A stretch of 64,000 bases of DNA, from assembly GCA_023205875.1 (NCBI GenBank), contig CP060761.1:744001-808000 (forward strand), read 5' to 3'. Position 1 is the first letter of the stretch, and each line of letters opens with the position of its first letter. The position numbers and the translations under genes were made by a program. This document shows positions 1 to 64,000 of this stretch, piece by piece. Under the pieces are notes generated by a model that made no database searches, was not told where the DNA came from, and saw only the letters and a list, made by a program, of their open reading frames with translations. This DNA is from Chloropicon primus (lineage: Eukaryota).

Positions 1-3000
1 CAAACTGCTACCTGCTGTGGCCCACATCTCGCCACCAAGGGCATGAACCACTTGACAAGCAGCCAGGCCTATGCCTCCCGCGGCGGAATGCACCAGTACA
101 GCCTGACCTGCATTGCTTGGCAGAGATGCTGCATGGCACATGGCAACATCTACGGTCGTAAATACTGTAATCATGGTGCATGCCTCCACAAAAGTAGCGG
201 CCTTGGGAATGGGCACAACTACTTGATGATGTGTGTAGGTATGTGATCCCAGACAACCAGAAGCCAAACCTGCAACAGCAGAGCCAACTGTCAATGGTTG
301 TGGTTGCAAAGATTTTCCTCCTAGGTGAACTTGAACAACAATACCAGAGACGTCACTTCCTGGAGGACCAGGATCTCCTGGATAAGCTCCAAGAACATTC
401 AAGACATCCCTGAAATTCAGTCCGACTGAAATAACCTCTACAAGTAGAATACCCAATGGAGGACTTTCAAGCTTCACTTGGTCTGTGACCAGATTACTCA
501 AGGCACCCCGGGGGCGGGGCACTATTTGCACAAGGCCTGATGGTGGTACATATGATTCGTTTAACAAACGGGCAACATTGACAAATTGACTTCTGACAAC
601 AATTTCATGGCCTTCATTTTCATTCCACCATGTTGATAGGCTTTCGTCAGATTCTCCTTTGCCAAGATCTACACAAGGCCAAGAAACATTTCTCTGCTCT
701 GATCTTACTGATCGTAACAGTCCTCTTAGACTTGCAGATAGAGCACAACCCTTGTACACGTTTGCGCATCCCATGCCCATCTGAGATTCCAGCACAGATC
801 CAAATGTCTTCAAAAGCATTTCCTTACCACTGCCCTTCAAAAGAGGAACAGACTGGGCTATGGACAAAAAGGCACCCACAGCATTCAAATAGGTGTGCTC
901 GTGACTCTCGCCTCCTTCAACGCATATTGAAGCATTGGACAAATGAACACGGAATAAATGTGATTTGGATATGAGCGTTGTTGCCGGGACAGCTTGAGGC
1001 TTCACCATGGAGCTCTGCCAGCTCATCACATAGATGTTACCCATGGCCTTGCCAACAACTGGTGATGTTCTCATAGATGGTTTGATAGACTTGGTTTGCA
1101 AATCCTGAAGTTTGCTCGCAATAGAACCATCCACATCAAGTATATAGTGAGAGCTCAAGGTTGTGTTACTCTGATCAGGTGAGGCGGCCTTACCACGCAC
1201 AGCAACTCCAAATATGTTCTGGCCAGACAAATCAGATGCAATGGAATACACAGAGAAACCCGCAGGAACCTTGGCATCCTTTGAGGACTCACTACTCGAT
1301 TCATCGTCCCGTAAGCCCACTCCGAGATGCATGCATCCATCCAACACAGCAGGGGGCACGGACATGCCAGATTCGTCTGTACCGCTTGTACCAGACAAGC
1401 AACCAAACACATGCTTCCCATTAGAAGCAACGTTGAGTCTCGACACGACTTGGAAGTGTGGACCATATTGCAGACCAACAGAGTACAAAGATGCATACAT
1501 TGCTGTACTATCCACAGATTGGCTGCACTGTCCACGCACAATCTCTGGCGATGCAGACACAGATTTATCATACGCAGAACCAACTGAAGATGATACATGC
1601 ACATGCTCATCCAGCTTCAACCCAATACATGCACGGAGGTGCAATCCAGAACCCCCTTGCAAGGAATTGCTTGATCTGATCTCTATGTCACCTTGCTCCA
1701 TATCAACAAGAACGGATAACTCACAATCTTCCACCAGACCATTCTGGGTCTCGTGTGGCTTTGCCAGAGTCAAGGGCATTGGAATACTTGCATGAAGAAC
1801 AAGAGACTTGAGTTGAGTGCCCATAGTCCCATTGCATATCTCAGACACACATCCACCCATTTCCATGTAGGCAGCACCTGGGCATACAATACGCCCCATG
1901 ACTTGATGGTCGCATATCCATTCAAGAATAGGTCGTTGAAGCTTGGACGACAAGGCAATGATATCAGATCCTGTGTTCTTTCTCACCTCAACAGCTGACA
2001 TCAGTGGGTGAGTCAATGGAAGAATCCAGTACCTGTTGGATTCCCAAGCCACAGACTGGAAAGAGAGAGAGCAATTAATGTTGTTGCAGCCAATGGGCAA
2101 TGACATCAGAACGTGAGCGTTGGTTCCTTGGAATGCAAAGGAACTTATACCAGTTGGGCACCCGCTTTGAGAGAGCGGAGATGATCTGCTTGTAGACTGC
2201 CTTGGCAGAGCATAGCACGGTCTGGATGCCTTGGCATCGTTTGTGTTTGCACTCATCATCTTCTCCAAGTGAACGTTGATGCTTCTCAAATGCAATATGG
2301 AATGGGAAACGTGTTGTTCAATTGTACTCAATGTCACGATGAGACTTGCAATACCAGCAGCAGATTCTGTATGCCCCACAGATGTCTTGCAGGCCATAAG
2401 TAAAGCAGGGGTTCCATTCTCTGAACGCCCAGAATCACTGATATCTTTCCTTCTCAAGGAAAGAACTCTATCCAAAGCACCAATCTCAATGGGATCACCG
2501 AGTGGAGTTCCAGTACCATGCAATTGGAAGCCTTCAAGATTGCCGAGATCAAGTGCAGCGTTATTAACAGCGCTTGTGATCACCTTTTGTTGTGCTGGAC
2601 CATTAGGTGCAGTCAATGCAGACGATCTACCGTCTTGATTCACAGCAGATCCTTTGAGCTCTACAAAAGCTACGCCTTCGTCCTTGCCGAATCTCTTAAT
2701 GCAAAGTGCACCACATGCTTCACCCCGGACATAGCCATCAGCTGAAGCATCCAAGGTCTTGCATCGTCCATCAAGAGCGAGCATTCCAGCTTGCTTAAGT
2801 ACTTGGCCCGTATCAGGTGCTAGTGTCAAGTTCACACCTATGGACAAAGCCGCATGACATTCTGTTGCAAACAAGCTCTGCATTGCAAGATGTGTTCCTA
2901 CAAGAGATGATGAGCAAGCAGTGTCTACAGAAAGAGATGGGCCTGTCAGACCATAAAAGAAAGACGCTCGCCCTGCTGCTACGCTTGCTGCATTAGCAGT

Positions 3001-3375
3001 AGCTGTATAGGGATTTGGATCCACAGGCACAAAGTACATCAGCTTGCTATAATCGAATGCAGATATGCCAACAAAAATACCGATTTCCTGCGACAACCCC
3101 ACTCCATCTTGAACTTCTGTGTACAACTGCAAAATGAATCTCTGCTGTGGATCCATCACAAGAGACTCGCTGGATGAAAGCTTGAAGGCATGTGCATCAA
3201 AGTTCTCTACTTGTGGGATGAAGCTGCCAAAGTATGATCCAGCTGAACCAGCCATCCACCCAGATGATTCACAGTCACCTCGGGAATATGGTTCCACAGT
3301 ATCAATTCCACAAGTGGATGCAAGTGAATCCATACCAAGGGAACAATGGCTTCCAATGGATGTAATGGCAATCGT
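1..3375 (-). other. Module 14 (partial): KS-DH-ER...
   Basis: DTACSSS (about 2915), HGTGT, intact DH, ER nearly identical to M12 ER; cut by the window edge. Confidence 0.88.
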
Positions 3376-6300
3376 AATACCATCCTTGAGTCCTCGTGCA
3401 TCTGGCACGGCAGATTCAGGCTTTGAGGAAAGTACATCGCCACCTTGGGCATCCTCCGGAGCAAGGATGTCACTCAAATGATTGCCAATCATGGATATGG
3501 AAGGATAATCAAATATCAAGGTAGCAGGCAAATCGATTCCAAACCTCTGTTGTAAAGCATTGTTGAACTCCACTGTTCCAAGAGAGTCAAGTCCTGCTTC
3601 CATCAAAGGCTCTTCTGCTGATATCTCTCGGCCCACGACACTAGCTGCAAGAGCTCCTACAGATGATATGATGGCTTCCTTCTGGAACCTCACTTTACCA
3701 GAACGCTGTACAGGTACTTGCGAGGAACTGCTTTCGATGGATACAGAAGTAGCCTTCCTGAAATTGTCAAAGACTTTGCTTTCTCCGACACCAGCAAGGA
3801 ACTTGTCCCATACAAATGGAACTGCACTTACAACTGCATTCGATACACAAGGACTTCCAAAACGATGACTGGAGTTCTCATACAATACGCTTTTGAGCAC
3901 AGATAGACCTTCTTCTCCTGACAAAGCTGGCATGCCAACACGTTCCAATCGGGCAGTTGTGGATGGGTCCCGTAAAGCCATTCCTCCACCAGACCATCCT
4001 CCCCACTGAATGCTGGTGGCACAGCCTCCCTGAGACTCCATGGCGCTGGACCACGTGTCCAAGTAGGCATTGGCTGCACTGTAGTTGGATTGACCCGCTG
4101 AGCCTAGCAACGACGCTACAGAAGAGAACAACAGTTGAGAGGAAACACTGTGACCCCAAGAGCGCGCATGCAAATGATGCAAGGCATCCACCTTGGGTGC
4201 AAATACAGTGCGTACACTCTGCATGCTCTGAGATCCCAAAAGCATATCAGACAGCAAGCCTCCAGCATGCATCACTTGAGCCAAAGGCATGTCAAGGCCT
4301 GGCCACGACAAAGCACTGCTGCACTCCTCCTGGGAGCCTGCATCGCATCTAATAGCACAGAATACTGCACTGCTTGATGGATCTTGCAAACTCAACAAGG
4401 CAGACTTGGATTTGTCCATGTCAACAGGCAACCTGTAATGACCAGAACGTCCGGCAAGCCTGAGATCAGGGGTCATGTGTTGGGCAGCCCACTGACCCAC
4501 GAGTGATCCAAGGGCACCCAAACCACCTGTCACAAAAGAGCAACCAAAAGTGCCCATGACGAAGTCACTCAGGAAGCCTTGATCAGGATACACATATGCA
4601 CCTTGCAAAATGCGGGCAACATTGACAAATTGACTTCTGACAACAATTTCATGGCCTTCATTTTCATTCCACCATGTTGATAGGCTTTCGTCAGATTCTC
4701 CTTTGCCAAGATCTACACAAGGCCAAGAAACATTTCTCTGCTCTGATCTTACTGATCGTAACAGTCCTCTTAGACTTGCAGATAGAGCACAACCCTTGTA
4801 CACGTTTGCGCATCCCATGCCCATCTGAGATTCCAGCACAGATCCAAATGTCTTCAAAAGCATTTCCTTACCACTGCCCTTCAAAAGAGGAACAGACTGG
4901 GCTATGGACAAAAAGGCACCCACAGCATTCAAATAAGTGTGCTCGTGACTCTCGCCTCCTTCAACGCATATTGAAGCATTGGACAAATGAACACGGAATA
5001 AATGTGATTTGGATATGAGCGTTGTTGCCGGGACAGCTTGAGGCTTCACCATGGAGCTCTGCCAGCTCATCACATAGATGTTACCCATGGCCTTGCCAAC
5101 AACTGGTGATGTTCTCATAGATGGTTTGATAGACTTGGTTTGCAAATCCTGAAGTTTGCTCGCAATAGAACCATCCACATCAAGTATATAGTGAGAGCTC
5201 AAGGTTGTGTTACTCTGATCAGGTGAGGCGGCCTTACCACGCACAGCAACTCCAAATATGTTCTGGCCAGACAAATCAGATGCAATGGAATACACAGAGA
5301 AACCCGCAGGAACCTTGGCATCCTTTGAGGACTCACTACTCGATTCATCGTCCCGTAAGCCCACTCCGAGATGCATGCATCCATCCAACACAGCAGGGGG
5401 CACGGACATGCCAGATTCGTCTGTACCGCTTGTACCAGACAAGCAACCAAACACATGCTTCCCATTAGAAGCAACGTTGAGTCTCGACACGACTTGGAAG
5501 TGTGGACCATATTGCAGACCAACAGAGTACAAAGATGCATACATTGCTGTACTATCCACAGATTGGCTGCACTGCCCACGCACAATCTCTGGCGATGCAG
5601 ACACAGATTTATCATACGCAGAACCAACTGAAGATGATACATGCACATGCTCATCCAGCTTCAACCCAATACATGCACGGAGGTGCAATCCAGAACCCCC
5701 TTGCAAGGAATTGCTTGATCTGATCTCTATGTCACCTTGCTCCATATCAACAAGAACGGATAACTCACAATCTTCCACCAGACCATTCTGGGTCTCGTGT
5801 GGCTTTGCCAGAGTCAAGGGCATTGGAATACTTGCATGAAGAACAAGAGACTTGAGTTGAGTGCCCATAGTCCCATTGCATATCTCAGACACACATCCAC
5901 CCATTTCCATGTAGGCAGCACCTGGGCATACAATACGCCCCATGACTTGATGGTCGCATATCCATTCAAGAATAGGTCGTTGAAGCTTGGACGACAAGGC
6001 AATGATATCAGATCCTGTGTTCTTTCTCACCTCAACAGCTGACATCAGTGGGTGAGTCAATGGAAGAATCCAGTACCTGTTGGATTCCCAAGCCACAGAC
6101 TGGAAAGAGAGAGAGCAATTAATGTTGTTGCAGCCAATGGGCAATGACATCAGAACGTGAGCGTTGGTTCCTTGGAATGCAAAGGAACTTATACCAGTTG
6201 GGCACCCGCTTTGAGAGAGCGGAGATGATCTGCTTGTAGACTGCCTTGGCAGAGCATAGCACGGTCTGGATGCCTTGGCATCGTTTGTGTTTGCACTCAT

Positions 6301-9300
6301 CATCTTCTCCAAGTGAACGTTGATGCTTCTCAAATGCAATATGGAATGGGAAACGTGTTGTTCAATTGTACTCAATGTCACGATGAGACTTGCAATACCA
6401 GCAGCAGATTCTGTATGCCCCACAGATGTCTTGCAGGCCATAAGTAAAGCAGGGGTTCCATTCTCTGAACGCCCAGAATCACTGATATCTTTCCTTCTCA
6501 AGGAAAGAACTCTATCCAAAGCACCAATCTCAATGGGATCACCGAGTGGAGTTCCAGTACCATGCAATTGGAAGCCTTCAAGATTGCCGAGATCAAGTGC
6601 AGCGTTATTAACAGCGCTTGTGATCACCTTTTGTTGTGCTGGACCATTAGGTGCAGTCAATGCAGACGATCTACCGTCTTGATTCACAGCAGATCCTTTG
6701 AGCTCTACAAAAGCTACGCCTTCGTCCTTGCCGAATCTCTTAATGCAAAGTGCACCACATGCTTCACCCCGGACATAGCCATCAGCTGAAGCATCCAAGG
6801 TCTTGCATCGTCCATCAAGAGCGAGCATTCCAGCTTGCTTAAATATTTGGCCCGTGTCAGGTGCTAGTGTCAAGTTCACACCTATGGACAAAGCCGCATG
6901 ACATTCTGTTGCAAACAAGCTCTGCATTGCAAGATGTGTTCCTACAAGAGATGATGAGCAAGCAGTGTCTACAGAAAGAGATGGGCCTGTCAGACCATAC
7001 ATGTACGAGATACGCCCTGCTGCTACACTTGGCGAGTTCGCTGTTCCCAGTTTAGGATTGACTTCTCGTCTACCGGAATAGGAGAAGATCCTGATATAGT
7101 CTTGGTTTGAGAGTCCTACGTATACACTGGTTTCCTCAGAAGTATGTGCAATAAGTGGATATGTGCTTGCCAAGATTAGTCTCTGTTGAGGGTCCATAAC
7201 AGTTGCCTCTGAAGCATTGATACTGAAAACACCAGTATCAAAATGAGCTACATCGCGTAGAAGAGCACAAAAGTAAGATCCGGTCTCATTTGGTACCCAT
7301 CCAAGATTTTCCATATCGTTTCTGAAATAACGTGAGACTCTATCAATGCATACCGCACCTTCATTTCTGTATGGACCTCCGGTCTTCAAACCATAATGAA
7401 CTATCTTAAGGTTATTCGTTGGTGCATTCACCTCATCATCCACGTCGAAACCCAAAGGAACATTATGCTCTTCAAACATCGCATCGTGGATGTATCTGGA
7501 TATTGCACCCACACTGGGGAAGTCGAATACAATTGTTGCCGGAATCGAGATGTCATATTTCTGTTGCAAGCTATTTTGAAATTCTATTGCTGTCAAAGAA
7601 TCTAATCCGGCATCAAAAAGGGGGTCATCGACACCAATATCACCAATAATTGGACTCACCAACAACATGACATCCTCAATCACCTTCCCAACATCAACAA
7701 TTCTTCTCGCAGTAACTTCAGTTTGTGGCCTCTGCCGAGTAACAGACTGTGTCACACTACGCATATGCCAACTTTCAAAGATGTTCAATTTCAAAGTCAT
7801 CCTTGACAAAAACTTCTTCCAATCAAACATCACACCTGTTACCGTGCTAAATCTCTTGCACAGACCAAACAAACTATATTTTGTAATACTTGCAAGAAGG
7901 CAAAGGCCATCTTCTCCTGACAAAGCTGGCATGCCAACACGTTCCAATCGGGCAGTTGTGGATGGGTCCCGTAAAGCCATTCCTCCACCAGACCATCCTC
8001 CCCACTGAATGCTGGTGGCACAGCCTCCCTGAGACTCCATGGCGCTGGACCACGTGTCCAAGTAGGCATTGGCTGCACTGTAGTTGGATTGACCCGCTGA
8101 GCCTAGCAACGACGCTACAGAAGAGAACAACAGTTGAGAGGAAACACTGTGACCCCAAGAGCGCGCATGCAAATGATGCAAGGCATCCACCTTGGGTGCA
8201 AATACAGTGCGTACACTCTGCATGCTCTGAGATCCCAAAAGCATATCAGACAGCAAGCCTCCAGCATGCATCACTTGAGCCAAAGGCATGTCAAGGCCTG
8301 GCCACGACAAAGCACTGCTGCACTCCTCCTGGGAGCCTGCATCGCATCTAATAGCACAGAATACTGCACTGCTTGATGGATCTTGCAAACTCAACAAGGC
8401 AGACTTGGATTTGTCCATGTCAACAGGCAACCTGTAATGACCAGAACGTCCGGCAAGCCTGAGATCAGGGGTCATGTGTTGGGCAGCCCACTGACCCACG
8501 AGGGATCCAAGGGCACCCAAACCACCTGTCACAAAAGAGCAACCAGACTCCTGCATACTCAACAGACTTGTGGTGCCAAGACCCTGGCTCACAACAACCT
8601 TGCCAACATGCTTAGCACCAGCCAGCCAACGGAGGGCAGCTTGAACGCCGTTCAGTGTATGAGAAGTACTTCTCAGCCCTGACACGGCACCCTCTGCAAT
8701 ACCACCAGCAAGACGGCACAATGCTTGGTGTGTCCTGGCAGGAGGCAAGAAGTCCACCGCCAAAAGACTGTAAACCACATCAGGACGCTCCCGGTGTACA
8801 CCAGATGCACTCCAAATGTCGCGCTTACCAATCTCCACCAACTGACCACCAAGGTGCAAGCAAGATAAACTTGCTCCGACCATACCTGATGATGTCAGCG
8901 AGTTGAGAATCAAGCCCATGCCTTCCACCTGTCCATTGTAAGCCGTTTGTCCCAAATCAGCATACCTGGTCGATCGCGAACTCACAACATGTTGTACGCC
9001 CATAGATCTCAGCAAGTGCCTCTTCAAACTGCTACCTGCTGTGGCCCACATCTCGCCACCAAGGGCATGAACCACTTGACAAGCAGCCAGGCCTATGCCT
9101 CCCGCGGCGGAATGCACCAGTACAGCCTGACCTGCATTGCTTGGGAGAGATGCTGCATGGCACATGGCAACATCTACGGTCGTAAATACTGTAATCATGG
9201 TGCATGCCTCCACAAAAGTAGCGGCCTTGGGAATGGGCACAACTACTTGATGATGTGTGTAGGTATGTGATCCCAGACAACCAGAAGCCAAACCTGCAAC

Positions 9301-12300
9301 AGCAGAGCCAACTGTCAATGGTTGTGGTTGCAAAGATTTTCCTCCTAGGTGAACTTGAACAACAATACCAGAGACGTCACTTCCTGGAGGACCAGGATCT
9401 CCTGGATAAGCTCCAAGAACATTCAAGACATCCCTGAAATTCAGTCCGACTGAAATAACCTCTACAAGTAGAATACCCAATGGAGGACTTTCAAGCTTCA
9501 CTTGGTCTGTGACCAGATTACTCAAGGCACCCCGGGGGCGGGGCACTATTTGCACAAGGCCTGATGGTGGTACATATGATTCGTTTAACAAACGGGCAAC
9601 ATTGACAAATTGACTTCTGACAACAATTTCATGGCCTTCATTTTCATTCCACCATGTTGATAGGCTTTCGTCAGATTCTCCTTTGCCAAGATCTACACAA
9701 GGCCAAGAAACATTTCTCTGCTCTGATCTTACTGATCGTAACAGTCCTCTTAGACTTGCAGATAGAGCACAACCCTTGTACACGTTTGCGCATCCCATGC
9801 CCATCTGAGATTCCAGCACAGATCCAAATGTCTTCAAAAGCATTTCCTTACCACTGCCCTTCAAAAGAGGAACAGACTGGGCTATGGACAAAAAGGCACC
9901 CACAGCATTCAAATAAGTGTGCTCGTGACTCTCGCCTCCTTCAACGCATATTGAAGCATTGGACAAATGAACACGGAATAAATGTGATTTGGATATGAGC
10001 GTTGTTGCCGGGACAGCTTGAGGCTTCACCATGGAGCTCTGCCAGCTCATCACATAGATGTTACCCATGGCCTTGCCAACAACTGGTGATGTTCTCATAG
10101 ATGGTTTGATAGACTTGGTTTGCAAATCCTGAAGTTTGCTCGCAATAGAACCATCCACATCAAGTATATAGTGAGAGCTCAAGGTTGTGTTACTCTGATC
10201 AGGTGAGGCGGCCTTACCACGCACAGCAACTCCAAATATGTTCTGGCCAGACAAATCAGATGCAATGGAATACACAGAGAAACCCGCAGGAACCTTGGCA
10301 TCCTTTGAGGACTCACTACTCGATTCGTCCCGTAAGCCCACTCCGAGATGCATGCATCCATCCAACACAGCAGGGGGCACGGACATGCCAGATTCGTCTG
10401 TACCGCTTGTACCAGACAAGCAACCAAACACATGCTTCCCATTAGAAGCAACGTTGAGTCTCGACACGACTTGGAAGTGTGGACCATATTGCAGACCAAC
10501 AGAGTACAAAGATGCATACATTGCTGTACTATCCACAGATTGGCTGCACTGCCCACGCACAATCTCTGGCGATGCAGACACAGATTTATCATACGCAGAA
10601 CCAACTGAAGATGATACATGCACATGCTCATCCAGCTTCAACCCAATACATGCACGGAGGTGCAATCCAGAACCCCCTTGCAAGGAATTGCTTGATCTGA
10701 TCTCTATGTCACCTTGCTCCATATCAACAAGAACGGATAACTCACAATCTTCCACCAGACCATTCTGGGTCTCGTGTGGCTTTGCCAGAGTCAAGGGCAT
10801 TGGAATACTTGCATGAAGAACAAGAGACTTGAGTTGAGTGCCCATAGTCCCATTGCATATCTCAGACACACATCCACCCATTTCCATGTAGGCAGCACCT
10901 GGGCATACAATACGTCCCATGACTTGATGGTCAGAAATGGAACGGAAAGAGGTCACTGACCATTTGTGATATAGTACAATATTCGCGCCTTTCACTACAC
11001 CATTGCTAAACAATAGGTGTGGTTTCGGACACATCCAACATCTCACAACCTTTGATAGCCTCTGTCCACATAGACGAGATTCGAAGTTAAAGTAGGATCT
11101 CGCAAACAATACATGTGCATTTGTTCCTTGGAAGGCAAAGCCACTTGCTCCATACACACTCTGGACACCTGACTCCGAATCGGAACACTCAGCAGAGGAA
11201 TAGCGTGGCAGTTGCACTGATTTGCCTCCCTTTTGTGCTTGAGCCTCCAAAACATTGACCACAAGAGGATTCACGTCCCGCAGATGCAGGAGTGGGCTCT
11301 GTGTGCCCATCACAAGGGGACCAAACAATTGTAGAATCCCAGACAGACCAGCAGCGGCCTCGGAGTGACCAACACAAGACTTCACAGCAGAAAGGGCAAG
11401 TGGAGTTTGTGACTTGGTGCCTCCAAGCAACACTGCGCTCAGGGCACCCACTTCAACTGGGTCGCCCAAAGACGTGCCTGTTCCATGCATTTGCAAGCCA
11501 AATACATCTTCGGGAGATAAGTGTGCACTCTGCAGGGCTCTTTGCAGAACCATCTGCTGCGATGGACCGTTTGGAGCTGTCAAGGAACTGGATCTGCCAT
11601 CTTGATTCACAGCACTGCCCATCATGGACACGCAATGTGCATCTGCCATGGCTTCAGAAGTTCCATCGACAATAACACTCTGGCAAGCTTCTGCACGGAC
11701 ATAGCCATCTGCACTTTGATCCAATGTCTTACACCTACCATCAGCAGAAAGCATACTCGCAATGCTTACGACGACAAGAGACGTGCTGGCAAGCATCAAA
11801 TTCACACCACATGCCATACTGATTGGAGCTGACATGGTCATCGCTGATTGCCAGGCCATAAACAAGCCTACAAGAGATGATGAGCATGCTGTATCTATGC
11901 TCACACACGGACCTTGCAGTCCATACTTGTAAGACAAACGACCAGCTGCTACACTGAAAGCACTACCTGTTGCCATCAATGGACTGAGCGGCATGTTGTG
12001 GTCCTTCATCAGACCATTGTATTCCATGTGCTCAATACCAACATAGACACCCATCTTCTCTCGACGACGCTGGATGTTGCTTGAGTCCTGAGCATCATTC
12101 AGTACGCAACTTTGCATAGACTCCCAACTCACTTGCAGAAGCAATCTCTGCTGAGGATCACACAGCGAAGCTTCGGTCACTGACATTCCAAAACAAGCAG
12201 TGTCGAACGTGGAAACGTCCTTCAAAAGACCTGCAAATCGTGCTGTTAGCTGACCACTTGGCATCATTGCTTCACTTCGCTCAAGATCCCAACGTCCAAA

Positions 12301-52700: not shown

Positions 52701-55700
52701 AGTCGCCACTGCAGGTGCACGCCGTGAAGTGCGAGAGGCTTTGGAGGTATTCAAGCAATGCTATCATCTGCATCTGCGCACGCCTGATTGCAGAGGCATC
52801 ACCCAAGTTGACATCCTCGGCAGTGCTTGCGCTTGCATCCCGTGAGCCGGCAGTCAACTCTATCAAGAGAACGCGCACGCCGGTGGCGTCTCTCTCTCCG
52901 ATGCCTGCGCCTGCCAGAGCGAGCATGACTTTTTCAATGCTTTGTCCAATCTCCAGTGCACCGCAAAGATGCGTCTTGTCCTTGATGACCAAGGTGCAAA
53001 CACCATCTTTTACTTCAACGGTGCAATCAAGGCAGTCAACCTTGGCTGCAGAAGGCTCGGTCACCTTGTCGTCCGCGAACGCCAGGCAGTGATAGAGGCC
53101 CTCGCTCCAACAGGACGACTTGGTCAATCTCTTCGTGTGAGTGCTCACGTCCCGGTGCTTGGAGAGACTCGCCACAAAATCACCCTCCAGATCGTCCGTC
53201 CCCCTCACGGTGAAGTCCACGAGACCGAGATTCACTGCTTCGAGGCTCCCGATCTGTTCGCCCGTGAGCATCAGGCGCCTGCACACGTGCTCTGGAATCC
53301 TCTGCTTTGCCGCAAGGGACACCATGCCTGGCACCAGCCCCCTCTTGACTTCCGGGAAGGAGAAGGTCGCCGAATCCTGTGCCACCACAACATCGGCGTA
53401 TCCCAAGGCGACAAGGGCATCTGATGTCATAGCGCCTTTGCACACGACGATGAGAACGCCCTTGAACTGCATCAATTTGCGGATGAGGGACGTCTGCGCG
53501 TGGATGAAAGAGTATTTCGTGTCCTGCGGTGGCTCAGAGAAAGAGGTGAAATCGCCCTCCTTCGACGAGTTTTCAAGAACAAGGAGCCTTTGCTCACCTG
53601 CACTCGTTGCCACGTCAAGGACCGCAGCGATATTCCTCAACACTGAGATCCTCTCCCCAAACGCGTCCACGGGGCACGATACATCAACGGTGAAGATGCT
53701 CGCAGAGATGCTGTCCGACTCCGTCACCGCAAAGGTAGGGGCGAAGTCTTCGGGCGACTGCTGTGAGCTCAGGTCAACGTCCCACACAGCTTCCATCAGT
53801 GAAGATGGCGTCAAAGGTTTCCTCATCATCTCAGTGGTAGCACTCGCGGCAAGATCTGGAAGTTTCCTGGCCCTGCTGATGGCATTCCTCAACGAGTTGT
53901 CTTCCACCGAAGTGATCACATTGTTCACCATTCCGAGATCGCACAAGCCGGCTGCACTCACGGGTTCACTCGCAGACAGACAGTTGTACAGTGCAGTGGT
54001 CCCCATTCGGTGATCCAGGCACTTCAACGTGATTGGGCCGAGTGCATTGATGCTGCTCATCTGTGACACAGGAAGAGCAGCATCCGAATATGCACTGACC
54101 CAATCGCATGACGATGTGATGCCCAAACCCATTGCGCTCAAGTCGCCACTGCAGGTGCACGCCGTGAAGTGCGAGAGGCTTTGGAGGTATTCAAGCAATG
54201 CTATCATCTGCATCTGCGCACGCCTGATTGCAGAGGCATCACCCAAGTTGACATCCTCGGCAGTGCTTGCGCTTGCATCCCGTGAGCCGGCAGTCAACTC
54301 TATCAAGAGAACGCGCACGCCGGTGGCGTCTCTCTCTCCGATGCCTGCGCCTGCCAGAGCGAGCATGACTTTTTCAATGCTTTGTCCAATCTCCAGTGCA
54401 CCGCAAAGATGCGTCTTGTCCTTGATGACCAAGGTGCAAACACCATCTTTTACTTCAACGGTGCAATCAAGGCAGTCAACCTTGGCTGCAGAAGGCTCGG
54501 TCACCTTGTCGTCCGCGAACGCCAGGCAGTGATAGAGGCCCTCGCTCCAACAGGACGACTTGGTCAATCTCTTCGTGTGAGTGCTCACGTCCCGGTGCTT
54601 GGAGAGACTCGCCACAAAATCACCCTCCAGATCGTCCGTCCCCCTCACGGTGAAGTCCACGAGACCGAGATTCACTGCTTCGAGGCTCCCGATCTGTTCG
54701 CCCGTGAGCATCAGGCGCCTGCACACGTGCTCTGGAATCCTCTGCTTTGCCGCAAGGGACACCATGCCTGGCACCAGCCCCCTCTTGACTTCCGGGAAGG
54801 AGAAGGTCGCCGAATCCTGTGCCACCACAATGTCTGCCAAGCATGGAAATAGCATGCCCCCACCATAGGTGTTTCCATGGCATGTCACGATGATGGGATG
54901 CTCATAAGCAAGCAGTGCACTGTACAGGTTTCCAAAGAGTTCAAGTCCCTTCATGAAGTTTTCCATCTCTGACACTTTAGCACCAAAGCAAAAGTTTCTA
55001 CCATTTGCCTTCAGGTGGATAGGCTTCGAGGCCTTGGAGAAAATCTGATTCAATTCAGAAAGCATTTCGATGCCAAGGGCATTGTCGGAATCTGGATCAT
55101 TCAATACGACGGTGAGAACTTCGCCTTCGTAACAGATCACTTTGTCATGACCGTCTGCCCGTGGCGACCGCGTGAAGCCTACTTGCACACCCTCTAAAGC
55201 GGGTCCCGTGCCATCTGCTGACATGCCAGCAGCATTCAAGCTCACGCGGAGTGCATTGTTTTGATGAATCGCATTCAAGTTGCTGTGGATGCAGTCCACA
55301 GAGGAAAGTAGGGAGATTCTGCTCAACCTGTCCGCGAGGAAATCCGTTGCGTTGATCAACGTCCCAAAGGGAATGCCCACGAAATTGAAGATATCATCAC
55401 GCTCAGAGCGCCTTTGAAGCTCAAAAATCGCCTCGACACTCTGACCTGTACCAGAAACCTTCTCGCCCCCAAGAGTCTCGCCAGAAGAAAAGAAATTGCA
55501 GTGGCCGCGCAGTAATTCACGGGTTTCAGGCTCTGGACCACTCCCCTCCAAGGAGAAACTCCCCAACGAAGGGAATGAGCTTGATGAAAGGTATGCTGGA
55601 AGCATTGGCGTGCGTGAAAACGAACAATTTACGAGAAAATGCTTCACATTCGCATCCCTCTTCATGATCTGCAACTGCGAATCAGCAATCTCAAGGAGTA

Positions 55701-58700
55701 CAGATTCGTCCAAGGTTTTCCTCGAGTGGATTGTTGAGGTAAAGTGGCAAAGAGGCACATTCGAATCAACGCGCACAGTGTGTTTCACCGGATTCACTGA
55801 ATTGCCCTTGACTTCACTGTAAAGAACAAACGAAGAGGCGGATTGATGGACATATAGATGCTTTGTGCTGCCATCTACAATTCGTTTGGGTATGGAGCTA
55901 CTGCGCAACGCAGTCAATGAGCAATGACTGTTCACTCCACTCATTCCAAACGAGCTTGTCCCAGCAATCTCGCTGTGGGCCAAAGATGTTGCAGAAAGAG
56001 GTGCCTTCGCAAGCGAGGTCCAGCCCTTCAAGGCCGAGGTGACATAAGGATTCATGTTGCGGAATCTAAAAGGAGCGCCGATGGACTTTGTCAAAGCGAA
56101 GGAAGCCAAGAGCAAGCCAGCCAGACCTGCTGTGCTTTCAGTATGCCCTATGGAGGCCTTGCTCGATCCCAAGGCCAAGACGTGAGCATCAGGTGATTCG
56201 CCGCTACCAAACTTTGCGCTTTGCAGCATTCCACCAATAGCACCAACCTCGATGGGATCACCAAGACTGGTCCCCGTGCCATGCAGAGAGACGTAGTCGA
56301 CATGCTGGGGGCTCTTCTTTCCTCGTTGAAGTGCACGCAATATCAACGATTGTTGCGATGGACCATGTGGCGCTGTGAAACTGCTCGATCGTCCGTCTTG
56401 ATTGACTGCAGAGCCGAGAACAGCAACACCTGCCCCCGTATCACCAGAAGGTGCACCCATGTGGATGACTGCGAAGCCCTCCCCTCTACCATAACCATCA
56501 GCGTCGGCATCAAAGGTTTTGCAACGCCCTGAAGGGGAGAGTGCCCCAAGCTGGCAGAGCTGGACAACGGTGTCTGCCAAGAGTATCGCGTTCACTCCTG
56601 CAACAAGAGCGGATGGGCAAGATTCTCCTTGGATGTCATGTAACCCCAGGTGCATCGCAACGAGGGAAGAGGAGCAAGCAGTGTCCGTAACGATGCAAGG
56701 ACCATTCAGACCAAATTGGTAAGAAACTCTGCCTACCATGAAACTCCTGCCATTTCCGACAATCCCAAATACGGTGTGGCCATGCCCATGTGAGGACAAG
56801 ACTTCTTTGTACTCATCCCACATGCAGCCAAGATAAACGCCGGCCTGACTCATGACATCTGTTGTCAGCGGCGACAGCAAAAGAATCTTTGATGTCTCCT
56901 GAAGGAGGATGCGTTGCTGTGGATCAATATGGGTTGCCTCCTGTATAGACATTTTGAAGGACCTCGCATCAAAGCTCTTTATGTCCCTACAATAAGCAGC
57001 AAAGCGGCAGTAAGAAGTTCCAACAGTTCGAGCGGGGGAATAATCAGCTTCAATGTCCCATCTATCGTAGGGCGTCTTGGTATGAGGTGTATTCAAACGA
57101 AGAAAGGAGCTGGAGTGTGAGCCCTCATCAAGGGTTGGAATTTTGAACACCATATCCAAAATTTCTACCACACTCACGGGGAGCTCCTGAGGATCAGGCT
57201 GGGTAGAAGAAATCTGCGTCTTGTCACCACCTAGTGGCTTTTCGACAATGCTCCCTTGAAGAAAGCGTGCGATCTCTTGGATTGTGGGATAATCAAAAAC
57301 AAGTGTTGGTGGAAGCTCCAACCCAAACATTTGTGATAAGTTGCTTCTGAATTCCACAGCTCCCAGGGAGTCCATACCCGACTCAATCAAAGGAGAGTCT
57401 ACATCGGCTTCGACTCCCACTATATCTTCAAATGCGCCCTTGATTTGAGAAATCACTTTCTCACTCTTCGCTTCGCTCACAATCTCCTCGGGGACCGGCT
57501 CGGCGCCACCACTCAATGCCTTTGACGCATGAAGCGCCACCTGCGAGTAGATGGGGTGATATTCGTCCAGCGGCCTGTCAACGGACGGGTTGATCACCCC
57601 GTAGAATCCAGATTCAAAGTCCCCTCGCAACGGCGCGCCGATGCCAAAGGTGTTCATCGATTTCTGTAAAGCAAGGAGTCCATCCGATGGGTTCAGAAGT
57701 CCTAAACCTAGCCTATTGAACCTATGCTGCAAGCTTTGGTTCGATCCCATTCCCGACTGTCCCCAAGGTCCATAGTTTAAAGCAGACACCGAGCAACCCT
57801 TTTGTCTTTGCGCAAGAGCAAAGTGGTTGAGTGCAGCGTTTGCACCAGCGTAGCTGCTTTGGCCGGGAGCACCAAGCAAGGAAGCAGAGGAAGAGAAAAG
57901 GACGGCCTTCCCCTTCAAATTCTTTAAAGAATCGCAAACAACATCTCCCACGACAACTTTGGAAGAAAAAGTCGACCTGAGATCCTTTGCTCTCTGGTTC
58001 ATGAAGACAGAGTCTGCAAGTGCTCCACTCGCGTGGACGAAGGTCATGTTGGGAGAGTGGAAGTTCCCATTCCTGAGCAGGCAGTCCCTCTCCTCCAGCG
58101 ATGACATGTCACAGCGAACCACAACAGTAGTGAGACTCTCTTGAGACAGGACTTCCTCCATGTTGTACCTTGCGTTCCTCGACGCCAAGGAGATGTTCTT
58201 GCATCCCAGTTCCGACATCATGGCTTTCACAGTCCGACCCAGGGCCCCGCTTCCGCCCGTGATGAGTGCATGCTCCGCCTTGTCCATGCGATTCAATACG
58301 GTGAGACGTCCCACGGGTCTCTGGCATATTTTGAAGCTACTGCTATAGCCACCCTCCAACTGGATTTCTCTCCAGCAGTCCTCCCCTTTCTGACCAGTTA
58401 CGCCGAACACAAAACCACTCTGGCCAGACTCGTAAGCAGACACCTGCACATTGAGGGGCACAAACTCTGCATTTTCACAGTGCAAGGAACGAGATATGCT
58501 CCGCAGCATGTGAGAGTGCAAACTCGACATCTCACCAACCATGGGCAACCTGTTGTGAGACCTTGATACCGTGTGAACAGATGCCTTCAAGTTAAGCGCC
58601 TGGGAACTTTGAATGCAGTGCATAATCTGAAGAGCGTGGCGTGCGGAGGGCACTGTCGCGTCCAGATCGTCGAAAGCGATGTGAGGACTCGACCTGTTGC

Positions 58701-61700
58701 CAAACAAACCAGCACTTTCTCTGGGGTTTTCCGCCCTGAAAGTTGTAAAGTACAACATCGCCATGCTTTTCTGTGGCATTTGAGCTTTCCTTGGAGCTTC
58801 GTCGGATGCCAAGGCCTTCGGCATCTTCACTTGCAACCCCAGCGCCAAGGAGAGAACCTTGTGGGGATAAGACTGACTAACGGAGTGGTTGCTCTCACTG
58901 TCATGCTTATCGCCATCGAGCCACGCATGCAAATCGTGCAAACCAGGTCCATGCGTGACGGTGCTCCAATACATTGATAGAGCAACTGGGATCCTGGCAC
59001 GGCTCTCTTCAGTACTAGAGGATTCAGGTACGGTGGCCAGCTGCAGACAGCAGTCCATCAAATTCGGAGGCACGCAATATTCATTCTCTCCTCCCTCCCA
59101 CATTGTTCGACCTGATCTGCACGAGCCATTCTCGTCTTGACGACGGAGGCGGGTCTCATTGGCCTTCTCATTGGAGTCAATGGAACAAGCGAGGCTTGTG
59201 GATCCAGTGAAGGAGGTCGCGGAAGACCCGCTTTTGAAAACATCGACAGCACCATGCTGGTTGCACCTGACTCTCACAGTTCCAACAGACTCTGGATTCT
59301 TCATGGTGAAAGGAGACGCGATGATGCAATCTAAAAGAGAAGCCACGACGCTCTTTCTCTTCCCGTCGTTTGGAGCCATGAATGCAATAGCCTCGTACGC
59401 AATTTCAAAGAAAGCTGCTCCTGGGAAGAGCTTCCTTCCAAAGATCACGTGGTCCTGCAGGAAAACCGCTGGTTTGCTGCGGGAGTTCAATCCAAACCCA
59501 AATTCAACTTCTCTCAGCAAAGACACTCGGTCCACGAGTGCCCTTGGGGTGGATTCTATCGAGATCCACTGCTTGTGAGAGCAGCAAAGGTCTGGCACTC
59601 TGCTCCTCCTGGAGACGAACTGAAGTTTCTCCACCAAGACATTGGCATTGGTCCCCTGAAAGGCAAACGCACTTGCTGATCCAAGCATTCGGTCAGCGAC
59701 CGCCGAGGAAGCAAATTGCCTCCCGACGCAGAAGTTCGGCCTTCCATTGGAAGCGCACTTATCCATCGGGTGGTGAAGGTGGGGGTTCATCTCCCTCAGG
59801 TGAAGGACAGGGACAGTGTAGTGAGCAGTCCATGCGAGCAGCTGCTCCAGGCCCACCATTCCGGCCCCTGCCTCCGCGTGGCCGACAGCAGATTTGGCGG
59901 CGCCAAGAACAAGCTTTTCTGTCCTGCTTTCCATTGCCACGTCCAAGGCTGAGAATGCTGCGGACACTTCAATCGGGTCACCGAGAGCTGTTCCTGTCCC
60001 ATGCATCTGCAGCTTGGAAACATCGCAAGGGTGCATTCTCGATATCTCTAGCATGGAGAGGATGAGGCCAGCTTGAGCGGGCCCGCTGGGCGCCGTCAAT
60101 CCACTTGAGCGGCCATCCTGGTTGACAAAGGATCCACGTAAAATCGCTTCTCTGCCCCTCGATAGATCCTCGTACCTCAATGGAGCCAGGGCCACTGATC
60201 CACAAGCTTCGGAGCGGACGTATCCATCCGCGGAGCTATCCAAGGTCTTGCACCTGCCATCGAGAGTGAGCATCGACGCTTTCCAGCATATCATGCTCCA
60301 GCGCGGAGAGAGGATCAAGTTGACACCACAAGCCACACCGCATTCGACCTGGTTGATGGACATGCCCACTCTTGTCAGATGCAACGAGACCAAAGATGAG
60401 GAGCACGCTGTGTCGACAGACATTGAGAATCCACTGTAGCCAAACGTGTAAGAGAGGCGACCTGAAGCTGCGCTCAGGTGCCCTCCAGTTGCCATGTACG
60501 CTCCAGGCTGATTCGCTGGGTACTTTTCTGCGTAGTCATTCAGAGAGATTCCCACAACCACGCCAACTGATGCACCCAGTTTGGCCTCGCCCCTCAAAGA
60601 ATGGTTGAGGCAACTCACAGACTCCAGCAAATGCCTTTGCTGCGGGTCAATGAAGGCCGTCTCTTGAAAGGACATTTTGAAGACTTCGTTGTCAAAGTTC
60701 ATAACGCCAACAAGAAAGCCTCCAAAGTTTGGAAACATGGTATGCCTAGATCTGGCAGAGAAATCCCATCTCGACAGCGGAGTGCAAGATATCGCATCGT
60801 TCCACAAGCAGGTAAGACCTTCAGCAACTCTTGGGAGCTTCACAAAAGTCCCCACGATCGCGGTGGAGATTTCTTCCGCTCCCGGGGAGTCCAACCTCTT
60901 CTCGCTCACCGCTAGCGGCAACTCCGTTCCCTTTTCCTCTGACACCAGAGCTTCCACGTATCTCGCAATGTTATCCACTGTCGGGTAATCAAAGACGAGA
61001 GTTGTTGGCAACTCGATCCCGATGCTTTCCTGCAGCGAACTGCTAAACGCGACGGCTTGCATGGAGGACAAGCCGCTGTCAAACAGTGGGGAGTCGTCTT
61101 GAAGATTCTCAAGATCGAACGTTGCTAGCAACGACTTCACGGTGCTCTGGATCGCTTGACTTTGGCCACGTTCCCCTGCCCCCGAGGAAGCCAGCTTCTT
61201 CCGCGCACTGAGCACATCCAGAGCAGTCACCGGAAGCAAGCGCCTGTAGTAACCAAGGTCCTCGGGGGGCGACGAGACGACCCAAACCCAAATGTTCCTG
61301 TCAGAATGAGCTTCCAGCAAGGGCAAGATCTCCTCGAGATCCTTGTCGACTAGGGAATTCACAAATATCCCGACGCCGCGGGCGGGCGGAATTCTGTCCA
61401 GGACATTGACCAGGCATTCAACCGAGTTCAAGCTCTCGTGGGGGTACTGGATCAAGACAGGGTTGTCTGCATCCATCTGTTGCACATCCCCGAGATCACC
61501 CGTTTCTGCCACAAGAGTCAAGGCCGAGCGGATCATCTTGGCTTCCGCAAAGTGACTTGACAGCATTCGTTTCAACACCTTCCCCGTCGCATTCGTTGGG
61601 AGCCTCGGCATGAAGTGGATGCTCGAAGGCACTTTGAAGTCCGAGAGCTGGCCCTGGCAAAAGCGAGTGAGCTCCTCCTTGGTGACATCCGTCCCTGGAG

Positions 61701-63228: not shown

Positions 63229-63254
63229 TGCGATCCCGCACTCTCACGCGGCAA

Positions 63255-63470
63255 TCTCACAACAACAACAATCCCAGCTCCTCCGCTCCTCCTCTCGCGT
63301 TCGCGGAAAAACAAAAACCCAACGACGAACGAAACGAAACGAAACGAAACGAAACCAAAAGGACGATCCTCTCTCACACTCGCTTCCTCACTCACTCACT
63401 CACTCGCACGCACGCTCTCTCGTTCGCTGCTCGCTCCTCCCAGCTCTCTCTCTCTCACACACACACCGAC
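63255..63470. repeat. Microsatellite-rich region upstream of the PKS start: (ACA)n, (CGAAA)n, (CACT)n, (CT)n(CA)n
   Basis: Directly visible simple repeats at about 63258-63271, 63325-63355, 63385-63405 and 63444-63465; probably 5' UTR or promoter. Confidence 0.8.
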
Positions 63471-63980: not shown

Positions 63981-64000
63981 GGGAGTCTCCTGAATCCGGT

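Follow-up and report, generated by a model that had tools for sequence, protein, structure and literature searches.

PKS1, a very large type I polyketide synthase (PKS) of the chlorophyte Chlamydomonas reinhardtii, is about 2.3 MDa in size. To our knowledge, hardly anything has been established about what chlorophyte PKSs do. In the available part of their survey, Shelest et al. (2015, PMC4661987) describe the megadalton chlorophyte PKSs as multimodular proteins without integrated acyltransferase (AT) domains and without methyltransferase (MT) domains. According to Table 1 of that survey, they carry up to 14 KS domains per protein, and C. reinhardtii PKS1 has 11 in one protein. Modules that are 89-98% similar are reported from O. 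lucimarinus, and growth by module duplication was described (PMC4661987). A second group of giants comes from Prymnesium parvum: the accessible portion of the PKZILLA preprint reports that PKZILLA-1 has 45,212 aa, a mass of 4.7 MDa, 17 exons and many KS0 bimodules, and argues the single-gene status of PKZILLA-1 and PKZILLA-2 from contiguous transcription (bioRxiv 10.1101/2024.01.29.577497).

The locus analyzed here lies in a 64,000-nt stretch of the genome of the marine green alga Chloropicon primus (contig CP060761.1, positions 744,001 to 808,000), hereafter the window. The C. primus gene is real, a very large but fairly ordinary member of the known green-algal PKS class, and had previously been mis-split. 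We assign a probability of roughly 75% to the reading that positions 63228 to 1, on the minus strand, are the first 21,076 codons of a single, intron-free, giant AT-less modular type I PKS gene, with breaks in its frame that are likely consensus errors. As far as the available text of Shelest et al. (2015) allows comparison, the gene resembles the PKSs described there in its AT-less build, in having no MT family in 68 tiles (E ≤ 1e-3), in module duplication and in chlorophyte-type KS domains. It differs in that its array modules are far more alike (99.3-99.7% versus 89-98%) and in that the window alone has 14 KS domains while the gene continues. Its domain order differs from that of C. reinhardtii PKS1, and the C. 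primus protein is a predicted one. Both it and the PKZILLA proteins, as presented in the available preprint text, are giant AT-less algal assembly lines that were missed or split by automated annotation, whereas the C. primus gene, with its 21,076 or more codons, needs no intron, has no KS0 (a KS without the active-site Cys) among its 14 KS domains and within the window reaches about half the mass of PKZILLA-1.

The minus strand of the window carries six stop-to-stop ORFs, arranged head to tail and read from 63243 down to 1 (Table 1). The earliest ATG, at 63228, is five codons past the upstream stop, and the 63228 nt that follow encode ~2.3 MDa of protein within the window; judged from the ORFs, an intron is not required for an open frame across this span. 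The modules are colinear, with 14 KS domains and matching ACPs in order in Pfam searches of 68 overlapping 600-aa tiles (E ≤ 1e-3), and searches of eight whole pieces (E ≤ 1e-5) returned 2+3+2+1+0+2+2+2 = 14 KS stretches, together with AMP-binding, ACP, KR, DH, ER, ECH and HMGS matches. An earlier, sequence-only reading of this DNA had proposed one colinear frame after five indels, with a loading unit and 14 KS modules, unfinished at position 1 and prone to being split by annotation. The six ORFs, the five 1-nt indels and the Pfam domains bear out the first point, and the open last ORF and protein P0242, which reads on past the edge, the second. P0242 continues 259 aa beyond position 1 through the ER into the start of a KR and then ends abruptly, so that at least one further break or a model end lies beyond the window. 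By position mapping, the published PKS models end ~11 kb beyond position 1, which would give a full protein of roughly 25,000 aa at most. No terminal domain was seen within 63228..1. ORFs A, B, C and E of the locus had no exact match in the protein collection, and a homologue search restricted to proteins of 4865-5000 aa returned nothing close. The 5′ flank contains two direct repeat families (63666-63783 and 63839-63956, 97% identical; 63773-63810 and 63932-63969). Four further ORFs near the 5′ end, of which three run on the plus strand and one, at 63678-63998, on the minus strand, gave no Pfam family and are taken as chance frames. In a separate observation, metagenome runs X4 and X6-X13 contain 0.06-0.13 of the words.

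Table 1. Coordinates of the ORFs, domains and frame breaks of the C. primus PKS locus in the window.
Feature	Position	Strand	Basis or content
5′ flank, non-coding	63229..64000	-	two direct repeat families
ORF 1	63243..35806	-	stop-to-stop
ORF 2	35842..29219	-	stop-to-stop
ORF 3	29390..26457	-	stop-to-stop
ORF 4	26707..24443	-	stop-to-stop
ORF 5	24485..16728	-	stop-to-stop
ORF 6	16764..1	-	still open at window edge
Loading unit and start codon 63228	60955..63228	-	acyl-AMP ligase aa 31-550, then ACP aa 692-758
Module 1: KS1-DH-KR-ACP	57259..60885	-	Pfam tiles; KS1 Cys/His/His kept
Module 2: KS2 and in-line ECH/HMGS block	47623..57180	-	Pfam, self-BLAST
Module 3: KS3-DH-ER-KR-ACP	42859..47475	-	Pfam tiles, DH profile, motif LYDHIVLSRVVIP
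Module 4: KS4-(C-terminal half of DH-like region)-KR-ACP	39190..42813	-	Pfam tiles
Modules 5-11 (KS5-KS11), array: KS-DH-like (His to Tyr)-KR-ACP	12478..39120	-	self-BLAST, Pfam KS/KR/ACP
Module 12: KS12-DH-ER-KR-ACP	7489..12408	-	Pfam tiles; DH profile 3.8e-83; motif DHQVMGRIVCPG
Module 13: KS13-DH-KR-ACP	3475..7365	-	Pfam tiles; DH profile 3.2e-90
Module 14: KS14-DH-start of ER, cut by window edge	1..3381	-	Pfam tiles
Break 1: A5 to A4, KR tail of module 5	35830	-	sister-copy comparison
Break 2: A3 to A2, DH-like region of module 7	29341	-	sister copies and contigs
Break 3: one extra base, KS_C of module 8	26666..26667	-	sister copies and contigs
Break 4: T4 to T3, KR of module 8	24482	-	sister copies
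Break 5: A5 to A4, KR tail of module 10, site equivalent to break 1	16752	-	sister copies

Residues 1-1250 are 100% identical to the C. primus "polyketide synthase" QDZ22815.1, which spans window positions 63228-47401. From SNP and deletion positions the window maps to chromosome 8 with an offset of 691,791, where the available part of the genome paper lists seven adjacent PKS models, A3770_08p53330 to 53260 (Lemieux et al. 2019, PMC6731263). The predicted splitting by annotation is thus seen in these models and in the GenBank 5′ model QDZ22815.1, which contains a 34-aa "intron" (window 51052-51153), has KS3 spliced out and ends after 5291 aa. In its alleles the window departs from QDZ22815.1, which, like P0242, is recorded on an 802,619-bp contig. 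Of 24 published single-base variants in the accessible tables, 16 show the other allele in the window, 6 the reference allele and 2 neither of them; a 25th listed variant is the indel at 742846. The variant table of PMC6731263, as far as available, also lists small indels at 742846 (C to CG, at 0.55), inside an annotated "intron", and at 682686 (CA to C, at 0.96), in a CDS, and Supplementary Data 8 lists a 57-nt heterozygous deletion at chromosome 8 755666, corresponding to window 63875-63932. Below about window position 41,600 the published SNP positions stop matching (733430 and 706866 give neither allele), which may mean that indels within the array set the window apart from the published sequence. 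RNA-seq depth was given as 13.4 for the 5′ model and 2.1-3.6 for the next five (PMC6731263, accessible tables), an unevenness that could come from multi-mapping in repeats.

The domain order begins with AL-ACP / KS-DH-KR-ACP / KS-ECH block-HMGS-ACP-HMGS-ACP / KS-DH-ER-KR-ACP / KS-KR-ACP and continues with 7 x (KS-DH*-KR-ACP) / KS-DH-ER-KR-ACP / KS-DH-KR-ACP / KS-DH-ER, where the window edge is reached. The loading unit matches AMP-binding (2e-63), AMP-binding_C and PP-binding in Pfam, and in NCBIfam it scores best against PRK06187, a long-chain-fatty-acid-CoA ligase subfamily, with 392.6 bits, which is below the cut-off of 476. The Cys-His-His triad is intact in all 14 KS domains (DTACSSS, HGTGT and a K..GH-type second His); in KS8 the second His sits just beyond a frame break. 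The DH motif of module 1, LQDHVIFGRKLFPG, is intact. In module 4, the DH profile match covers positions 213-289 only, and the module tail is the start of the repeat array (unit u0 in the unit alignment). Positions 1-1911 of module 14 are 99.6% identical to positions 9025-10932 of module 12 by self-BLAST.

The seven-module array has a period of 3809-3825 nt, and its copies are 99.3-99.7% identical over 28 kb by self-BLAST; an anchor 30-mer is found eight times in the window. The KR tails are of two types, type 1 in four copies and type 2 in three, and the type-1 copies differ pairwise by 8-18 substitutions. The DH-like domain, DH*, was matched by a custom DH profile only (i-E about 1e-15), and in all seven modules the catalytic His is replaced by Tyr (motif LNEYDVCGRQVLC). 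The 529-aa region between KS and KR had no PDB sequence match (E ≤ 1), no NCBIfam family and no Pfam family. Synonymous changes occur at 14 of the 29 variable codons among the near-identical copies, where 23% would be expected (binomial P = 0.003), suggesting that the copies are under selection.

The alternative that best survives is that the gene is real and continuous but that the seven-module array has been mis-assembled, so that module number, protein size and polyol length would differ from those given here; we regard this as possible, with the odds against it. The near-identity of the copies over 28 kb leaves room for such an error, and the PacBio subread N50 of 4.89 kb reported in the available part of the genome paper (PMC6731263) is too short to span the array. 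Contig depths of the type-1 and type-2 tails are about equal (570 versus 573, 606 versus 583 and 31.7 versus 34) despite four and three copies in the window, so the copy number of the array may be off, and break 3 looks like two merged paralog alleles, with C and T both retained. Opposed to this, the depth of the shared part in run X1 is 1546-1569 versus 573 for the type-2 tail, a ratio of ~2.7 that fits eight versus three copies, and no structural variant longer than 20 bp appears in chromosome 8 669,955-755,666 among 12 chromosome 8 rows of the accessible table (PMC6731263).

At each of the five frame breaks the window departs by 1 nt from the near-identical sister modules; four of the breaks are in A or T runs, and all five interrupt a domain that the next frame carries on. 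At the equivalent sites of breaks 1 and 5, two of the four type-1 copies have A4 and two have A5. Break 2 has A3 in the remaining seven of eight copies, the extra base of break 3, at a C/T paralog-variant site, is absent from the remaining seven of eight, and break 4 has T4 in the remaining two of three type-2 copies. Contigs were available from runs X1, X2 and X3, which are one sample, and from X5, which has another sample and organism label and is only guessed to be RNA; read-derived contigs drop minor variants, and X1-X3 are possibly the very data behind the window. All contigs of the four runs restore the missing base at 29339 (break 2) and omit one base at 26667 (break 3). For the KR tails with breaks 1, 4 and 5, only contig versions of in-frame length were seen (484 and 499 letters, versus 483 and 498 in the window): contigs of X1-X3 bridge the flanks of break 1 with 484 letters, and at 28308, the sister site of break 4, the sole type-2 contig is gap-free at 499. 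The single gene favored by the sequence-only reading is strengthened by these contigs, and the five breaks are likely assembly consensus errors rather than real gene ends. The A4 form, in two of four type-1 copies, may be a genuine variant that conversion has spread.

It is quite improbable that some or all of the breaks are real and mark a decaying pseudogene or several polypeptides that must dock. Two of the five are missing from the contigs of all four runs and the other three are 1-nt run-length differences for which only in-frame-length contigs were seen; moreover, the cuts go through KS and KR cores and show neither docking ends nor the context of a start codon, every one of the 14 KS triads is preserved, and there is the synonymous excess between copies. 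These observations outweigh four that point the other way, namely a frame broken in both the window and the published annotation, as far as the latter is accessible, the A4 form in half of the type-1 copies, the low RNA-seq depth (2.1-3.6) given for the downstream models in the available tables, and the abrupt end of P0242 beyond the window.

Within the single gene, module 2 contains, after KS2, ECH-A (aa 2703-2890), two 480-aa units, ECH-B (aa 3889-4094) and HMGS-ACP-HMGS-ACP. Each 480-aa unit consists of a degenerate crotonase-like stretch and an ECH, and the two units are 100% identical (51764-53390 equals 53204-54830 by self-BLAST); the HMGS-ACP copies, 47654-49185 and 49304-50835, are 99.9% identical. 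The block holds four Pfam ECH stretches and weak crotonase-like stretches, giving about six crotonase-like folds before HMGS. The best solved match of the crotonases is isohexenylglutaconyl-CoA hydratase (60.5 bits), and AlphaFold2 without an alignment gave a mean pLDDT of 38.4 and a pTM of 0.26 for the three-crotonase stretch, values too low for use. The HMGS passes the eukaryotic family TIGR01833 HMG-CoA-S_euk (391.5 bits versus a cut-off of 286.2) and fails the prokaryotic TIGR01835 (201 versus 360). Its PDB matches include human HMGCS1 at 310 bits, PksG at 69 and CurD at 63, with plant and human HMGS at 268-310. In the HMGS tree it falls in a set labelled 98* of 28 of the 141 rows, which includes 12 of the 15 rows whose proteins have at least 1000 aa, and KS domains were found in five of eight scanned hits (P0358, P0360, P0363, P0366 and P0395). 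By its position in this tree, the module 2 HMGS belongs to a clade of PKS-embedded HMGS that is also present in Cymbomonas, Burkholderia and Dyella.

HMGS and ECH also occur together inside type I PKSs of Burkholderia ubonensis (WP_080424809.1), Dyella jejuensis (GAB2576254.1) and Cymbomonas tetramitiformis (KAK3254043.1). Each of the B. ubonensis and D. jejuensis PKSs is a cis-AT protein with a single module and with ECH-ECH-HMGS at its end, whereas the C. primus block is mid-chain, with a doubled HMGS-ACP pair and about six crotonase-like folds ahead of it. By a mechanistic analogy that we infer, the block resembles the bacterial PksG/CurD cassettes in combining HMGS and crotonase-fold enzymes at a beta-keto thioester with tandem ACPs adjoining. 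It differs from them in that its HMGS is of eukaryote type and fused in line, and in that there is no KS0 able to make an acetyl-ACP donor. A literature search for such an in-line HMGS beta-branching unit found no description, and in the available text "HMG" has no occurrence in PMC4661987 and neither "HMG" nor "HCS" occurs in the PKZILLA preprint (bioRxiv 10.1101/2024.01.29.577497). We put forward, tentatively and as the less probable case, that module 2 may be a self-contained in-line beta-branching unit of an undescribed kind. In such a unit a eukaryote-type HMGS, doubled with its ACP, would take acetyl-CoA directly, without KS0 or donor ACP, the approximately six fused crotonase folds ahead would form covalent pseudo-trimers, and the HMGS would represent a distinct PKS-embedded lineage common to prasinophyte algae and a few proteobacteria.

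The acyl transferase family PF00698 was found in none of the eight pieces (E ≤ 1e-5) and none of the 68 tiles (E ≤ 1e-3), in keeping with the sequence-only reading, which had recognised no AT motif. All 14 KS domains are outside a clade, labelled 99* in the KS tree, of 56 bacterial and alveolate KS domains, among them the full sets of 28 bacterial AT-less rows and 24 cis-AT rows; the bacterial AT-less rows are those returned by homology searches, with classic trans-AT systems left out. Twelve window KS domains belong to a set of 59 rows, labelled 98*, that consists of chlorophyte, unnamed metagenome and window sequences, and KS2 and KS3 are in a 99* set of 13 rows, 11 of them chlorophyte. All 14 therefore group with chlorophyte or unnamed AT-less KS domains and not with bacterial ones. 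The earlier term "trans-AT" thus stands in the sense of AT-less modules and fails in that none of the 14 KS domains is in the bacterial clade. Likewise, the protein is a giant AT-less algal PKS, as claimed, and with 2.3 MDa in the window it does not reach the PKZILLA class of >3 MDa. The AT-less class has been on record since 2015, and the protein is accordingly far less new than that reading assumed. The gene is algal, judging from the identity of aa 1-1250 to C. primus QDZ22815.1 and from the grouping of its KS domains with those of chlorophytes. The probability that the stretch is instead bacterial, as a contaminant or a recent trans-AT PKS transfer with six ordinary adjacent genes, is negligible, and on present data this origin is refuted by where the junctions lie and by the KS tree: the architecture is like that of AT-less bacterial assembly lines, and PKSs of Burkholderia and Dyella are among those with the nearest embedded HMGS domains, but the ORF junctions are inside domains rather than between them, the KS domains sit with chlorophyte KS outside the bacterial clade, the matching proteins are recorded on an 802,619-bp contig, and roughly 50% heterozygous SNPs are found at the locus, as in the rest of the diploid nuclear genome in the accessible data.

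Read from motifs only, namely the DH motif, the HMGS type and the best crotonase match, the chemistry would begin with a fatty-acid-like acid adenylated and loaded by the acyl-AMP ligase unit. Malonyl units would be supplied by a free-standing acyltransferase encoded elsewhere; the accessible Supplementary Data 2 of the genome paper lists two free-standing malonyl-CoA:ACP transacylase genes, A3770_05p37740 and A3770_09p54370 (Lemieux et al. 2019, PMC6731263). Within module 2, the beta-keto group would gain an acetyl unit through the in-line HMGS, and dehydration and decarboxylation by the crotonase domains would convert the resulting adduct to an alkyl branch. A beta-hydroxyl would be left by every one of modules 4-11, so that about eight 1,3-hydroxyls would follow one another, and the later modules would add saturated and enoyl units. 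The predicted product is a long, branched, polyhydroxylated lipid, possibly a cell-covering component by analogy with Chlamydomonas PKS1.

If the single-gene reading is true, a 17-Mb picoplankton genome devotes ~75 kb to one gene whose protein, of at least 2.3 MDa, would be among the largest predicted in green algae. The published count of 12 C. primus PKS genes, as given in the available part of the genome paper, would then be inflated in part by frame errors at a locus rich in repeats. Current views of the class stand: the 2015 survey, in its accessible text, already describes it, together with its AT-less build and its expansion through duplicated modules. The array cleanly illustrates how modules have been duplicated very recently. 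For enzymologists, the in-line eukaryote-type HMGS block offers a lead, and the unit proposed for it, if true, would be an independent solution to the task of the bacterial PksG/CurD cassettes. The array with its dead dehydratase leads to a prediction that can be tested: the product should be a lipid bearing a run of about eight 1,3-hydroxyls and a single alkyl branch.

On the minus strand of the window, Pfam scans of eight pieces detected AMP-binding, 14 KS, KR, DH, ER, ACP, ECH and two HMG-CoA synthase (HMGS) domains, which were placed by scanning 68 overlapping tiles, each of at most 600 aa. A loading unit, AL-ACP, is followed by KS1-DH-KR-ACP (module 1), KS2-ECH block-HMGS-ACP-HMGS-ACP (module 2), KS3-DH-ER-KR-ACP (module 3), KS4-KR-ACP (module 4), seven copies of KS-x-KR-ACP (modules 5-11), KS12-DH-ER-KR-ACP (module 12), KS13-DH-KR-ACP (module 13) and KS14-DH-start of ER (module 14). 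The Cys-His-His residues are kept in 14/14 KS. The acyltransferase (AT) family PF00698 was found in 0/8 pieces at E≤1e-5 and 0/68 tiles at E≤1e-3, and methyltransferase (MT) families were likewise absent from pieces and tiles. Only three of the 68 tiles were without any Pfam family, all of them between KS and KR of repeated modules.

The coding region is distributed over six long ORFs, read from stop to stop, each overlapping the next head to tail (table). The first ATG, at 63228, lies 5 codons past the upstream stop, and the 772 bases upstream of it are non-coding and contain two direct-repeat families, of 118 nt (97% identity) and 38 nt (84%). A heterozygous 57-nt deletion at chromosome 8 position 755666, listed in the available part of the genome paper (Lemieux et al. 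2019, PMC6731263), falls inside one repeat copy. The plus strand holds only two ORFs above 300 aa (317 and 503 aa), and the one that was scanned contained no Pfam family. G+C reaches 60% at the 5' end and otherwise lies mostly at 45-56%; the available part of PMC6731263 gives a genome mean of 57.5% and reports low G+C at PKS regions of chromosomes 3, 5 and 8.

Coordinates of reading frames, frame breaks and other features of the PKS locus
Feature	Position	Strand	Remark
ORF 1	63243..35806	minus	9145 aa
ORF 2	35842..29219	minus	
ORF 3	29390..26457	minus	
ORF 4	26707..24443	minus	
ORF 5	24485..16728	minus	
ORF 6	16764..1	minus	open at window edge
Break	35830	minus	A5->A4; A5 in 2/4 type-1 copies
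Break	29341	minus	A3->A2; A3 in 7/8 copies
Break	26666	minus	one additional base at C/T paralog-variant site; absent from 7/8 copies
Break	24482	minus	T4->T3; T4 in 2/3 type-2 copies
Break	16752	minus	A5->A4; same site as 35830; A5 in 2/4 type-1 copies
Tandem array	~11,100-39,300		period 3809-3825 nt, identity 99.3-99.7% (self-BLAST)
HMGS-ACP pair	47623-50835	minus	
Crotonase-like folds	50947-55122	minus	about six in a row
34-aa 'intron' of QDZ22815.1	51052-51153	minus	inside Pfam-aligned ECH-B
QDZ22815.1	63228-47401		7 mismatches, one 34-aa gap
P0242	10338..1		259 aa beyond window
5'-flank direct repeats	63666-63969		

All five breaks are single-base changes within a domain that the next frame carries on, and they are not bacterial-style gene boundaries. 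The sequence-only observation of one colinear AT-less synthase with a loading unit and 14 KS is confirmed, and its interpretation is supported. Contigs of four sequencing runs were aligned on window 26400-29560. Three runs (X1, X2, X3) come from one sample, possibly the source of the window, and contain 0.92-0.98 of sampled words; the fourth, X5, has another sample and organism label and was guessed to be RNA. Each of the four runs gave the same result: all covering contigs omit one base at 26667 and add one at 29339, so that two of the five breaks are absent from the contigs of the reads. Break 24482 has its sister site at 28308, and there the single type-2 contig shows no gap. In X1, X2 and X3 a contig has 484 letters in place of the 499-nt type-2 tail; window type-1 tails measure 484 in frame and 483 in the two broken copies, and type-2 tails 499 in frame and 498 broken. 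For the remaining breaks only in-frame-length versions were therefore seen, evidence weaker than the direct cases because contigs can lose variants. The X5 contigs span all of 26400-29560 at ≥99% identity, with the frame repaired at both indel sites.

Alignment of the eight array units (u0-u7), in which one 30-mer occurs eight times, revealed two kinds of KR tail, type 1 in u1, u2, u5 and u6 and type 2 in u3, u4 and u7. Type-1 units differ pairwise by 8-18 substitutions and 0-1 indel columns, and u3 differs from u4 by 8 substitutions and 3 indel columns. Of the 29 codons that vary among near-identical copies, 14 are synonymous, versus 23% expected (P=0.003), an excess that argues for selection on the copies. 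X1 depth, 1546-1569 in shared parts versus 573 in the type-2 tail, fits 8 versus 3 copies. The two tails are equal in contig depth, though the window has 4 versus 3 copies, which leaves the length of the array in doubt by roughly one module. Self-BLAST also identified duplications of HMGS-ACP (99.9% over 1532 nt) and of a 1440-nt ECH unit (100% over 1627 nt), and KS-DH parts of modules 12-14 that are mutually 99.5-99.7% identical; these duplications are recent. Recent module duplication is also seen outside this locus, in the three near-identical KS of P0083 (5134 aa), which with P0268 (2719 aa) is another C. primus PKS model; both share KS lineages with the window gene, and KS1 pairs with a P0268 KS.

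The GenBank C. primus polyketide synthase QDZ22815.1 (5291 aa) is 100% identical over residues 1-1250. Past 47401, its model splices out KS3 and then ends. Its 34-aa 'intron' is probably a gene-modelling device; the window frame is open throughout, and PMC6731263, in the part available, lists a heterozygous 1-nt insertion C->CG (0.55) at this site. At the other end, the frame is still open at the window edge, as the sequence-only reading had noted: ORF 6 has no stop, and the called protein P0242 (3711 aa) runs on across ER and into KR, where it ends abruptly.

The available part of PMC6731263 counts 12 type I PKS genes in C. primus. Seven, A3770_08p53330 to 53260, are neighbours on chromosome 8, with RNA-seq depths of 13.4, 2.5, 2.4, 2.1, 2.2, 3.6 and 22.7, and the genes flanking them encode an SFT2-like protein and an SNF2 helicase. 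Annotation has thus split the gene, as had been foreseen. The SNP table and 57-nt deletion of that source locate the window on chromosome 8, at an offset of 691,791, and SNPs annotated as PKS continue 8-11 kb past the window edge, at 680,423-683,545. Among the 25 variants listed for the locus (24 single-base and an indel at 742846), the window has the alternative allele at 16 single-base sites, the reference at 6 and neither at 2, both inside the array. Small indels are listed at frequencies of 0.55 (annotated 'intron') and 0.96 (CDS), so the published consensus too conflicts with its own reads here. At four non-synonymous sites that were checked, within 47354-63055, QDZ22815.1 carries the reference allele; despite the allele differences, it and the window are recorded on contigs of equal length, 802,619 bp.

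The HMGS domain scored 310 bits against human HMGCS1 and 268 against plant HMGS, versus 69 against PksG and 63 against CurD (all PDB), and at 391.5 bits passes the cut-off (286.2) of the eukaryotic equivalog TIGR01833. A library-wide search returned 2601 relatives at E≤1e-3, the best matches including an HMGS-ACP fragment with 86% identity, a Cymbomonas protein of 5870 aa that carries two HMGS stretches, and Burkholderia ubonensis and Dyella jejuensis PKSs ending ECH-ECH-HMGS; in-line HMGS is thus not unique. The window HMGS falls in a 98* set, 28 of 141 tree rows, that includes 12 of the 15 rows derived from proteins at least 1000 aa long, and belongs to a little-described PKS-embedded lineage. 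It clusters with the Cymbomonas, Burkholderia and Dyella domains despite passing the eukaryotic model. Ahead of the HMGS, the crotonase part, whose best solved match is isohexenylglutaconyl-CoA hydratase, includes two 480-aa units whose DNA sequences are 100% identical. Since crotonases are trimers, fused pseudo-trimers are conceivable from this arrangement. A literature search returned no published description of such an HMGS/ECH block in algae, and 'HMG' has 0 occurrences in the available parts of two algal PKS papers (PMC4661987; bioRxiv 10.1101/2024.01.29.577497).

The loading domain comes closest to long-chain fatty-acid ligases, with a score below the model's cut-off. A home-built profile from 51 DH segments detected DH-like domains in all of the repeated modules (i-E ~1e-15), in which the catalytic His is replaced by Tyr and Pro by Cys (LNEYDVCGRQVLC); the His is retained in modules 1, 3 and 12-14. 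Modules 4-11 would therefore leave beta-hydroxyls.

A KS phylogeny, one of the checks proposed with the sequence-only reading, was constructed from 128 rows (quick IQ-TREE, LG+G4): 14 window, 43 chlorophyte, 28 bacterial AT-less, 24 bacterial cis-AT, 15 unnamed metagenome and 4 alveolate. The rows derive from 34 proteins, chosen by name and Pfam list among ~350 retrieved, with at most 4 KS each. The bacterial and alveolate rows, 56 in all, make up a 99* clade that contains no window KS. Among chlorophyte or unnamed AT-less KS, the window domains take up five positions: KS1 groups with a different C. primus PKS, KS2/3 and KS13/14 each with Bathycoccus, and KS4 with unnamed marine proteins, and KS5-12 form a single near-identical bundle. 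This placement agrees with the chlorophyte AT-less PKSs of Shelest et al. (2015, PMC4661987), described in the available part of that paper as of MDa size, grown by module duplication, without MT domains and with up to 14 KS per protein. Most likely, the locus is a single giant PKS gene of C. primus, without introns or AT domains, that has been fragmented by assemblies and annotation. It is one more of a class already known, not a new class, and its array is transcribed if X5 is RNA.
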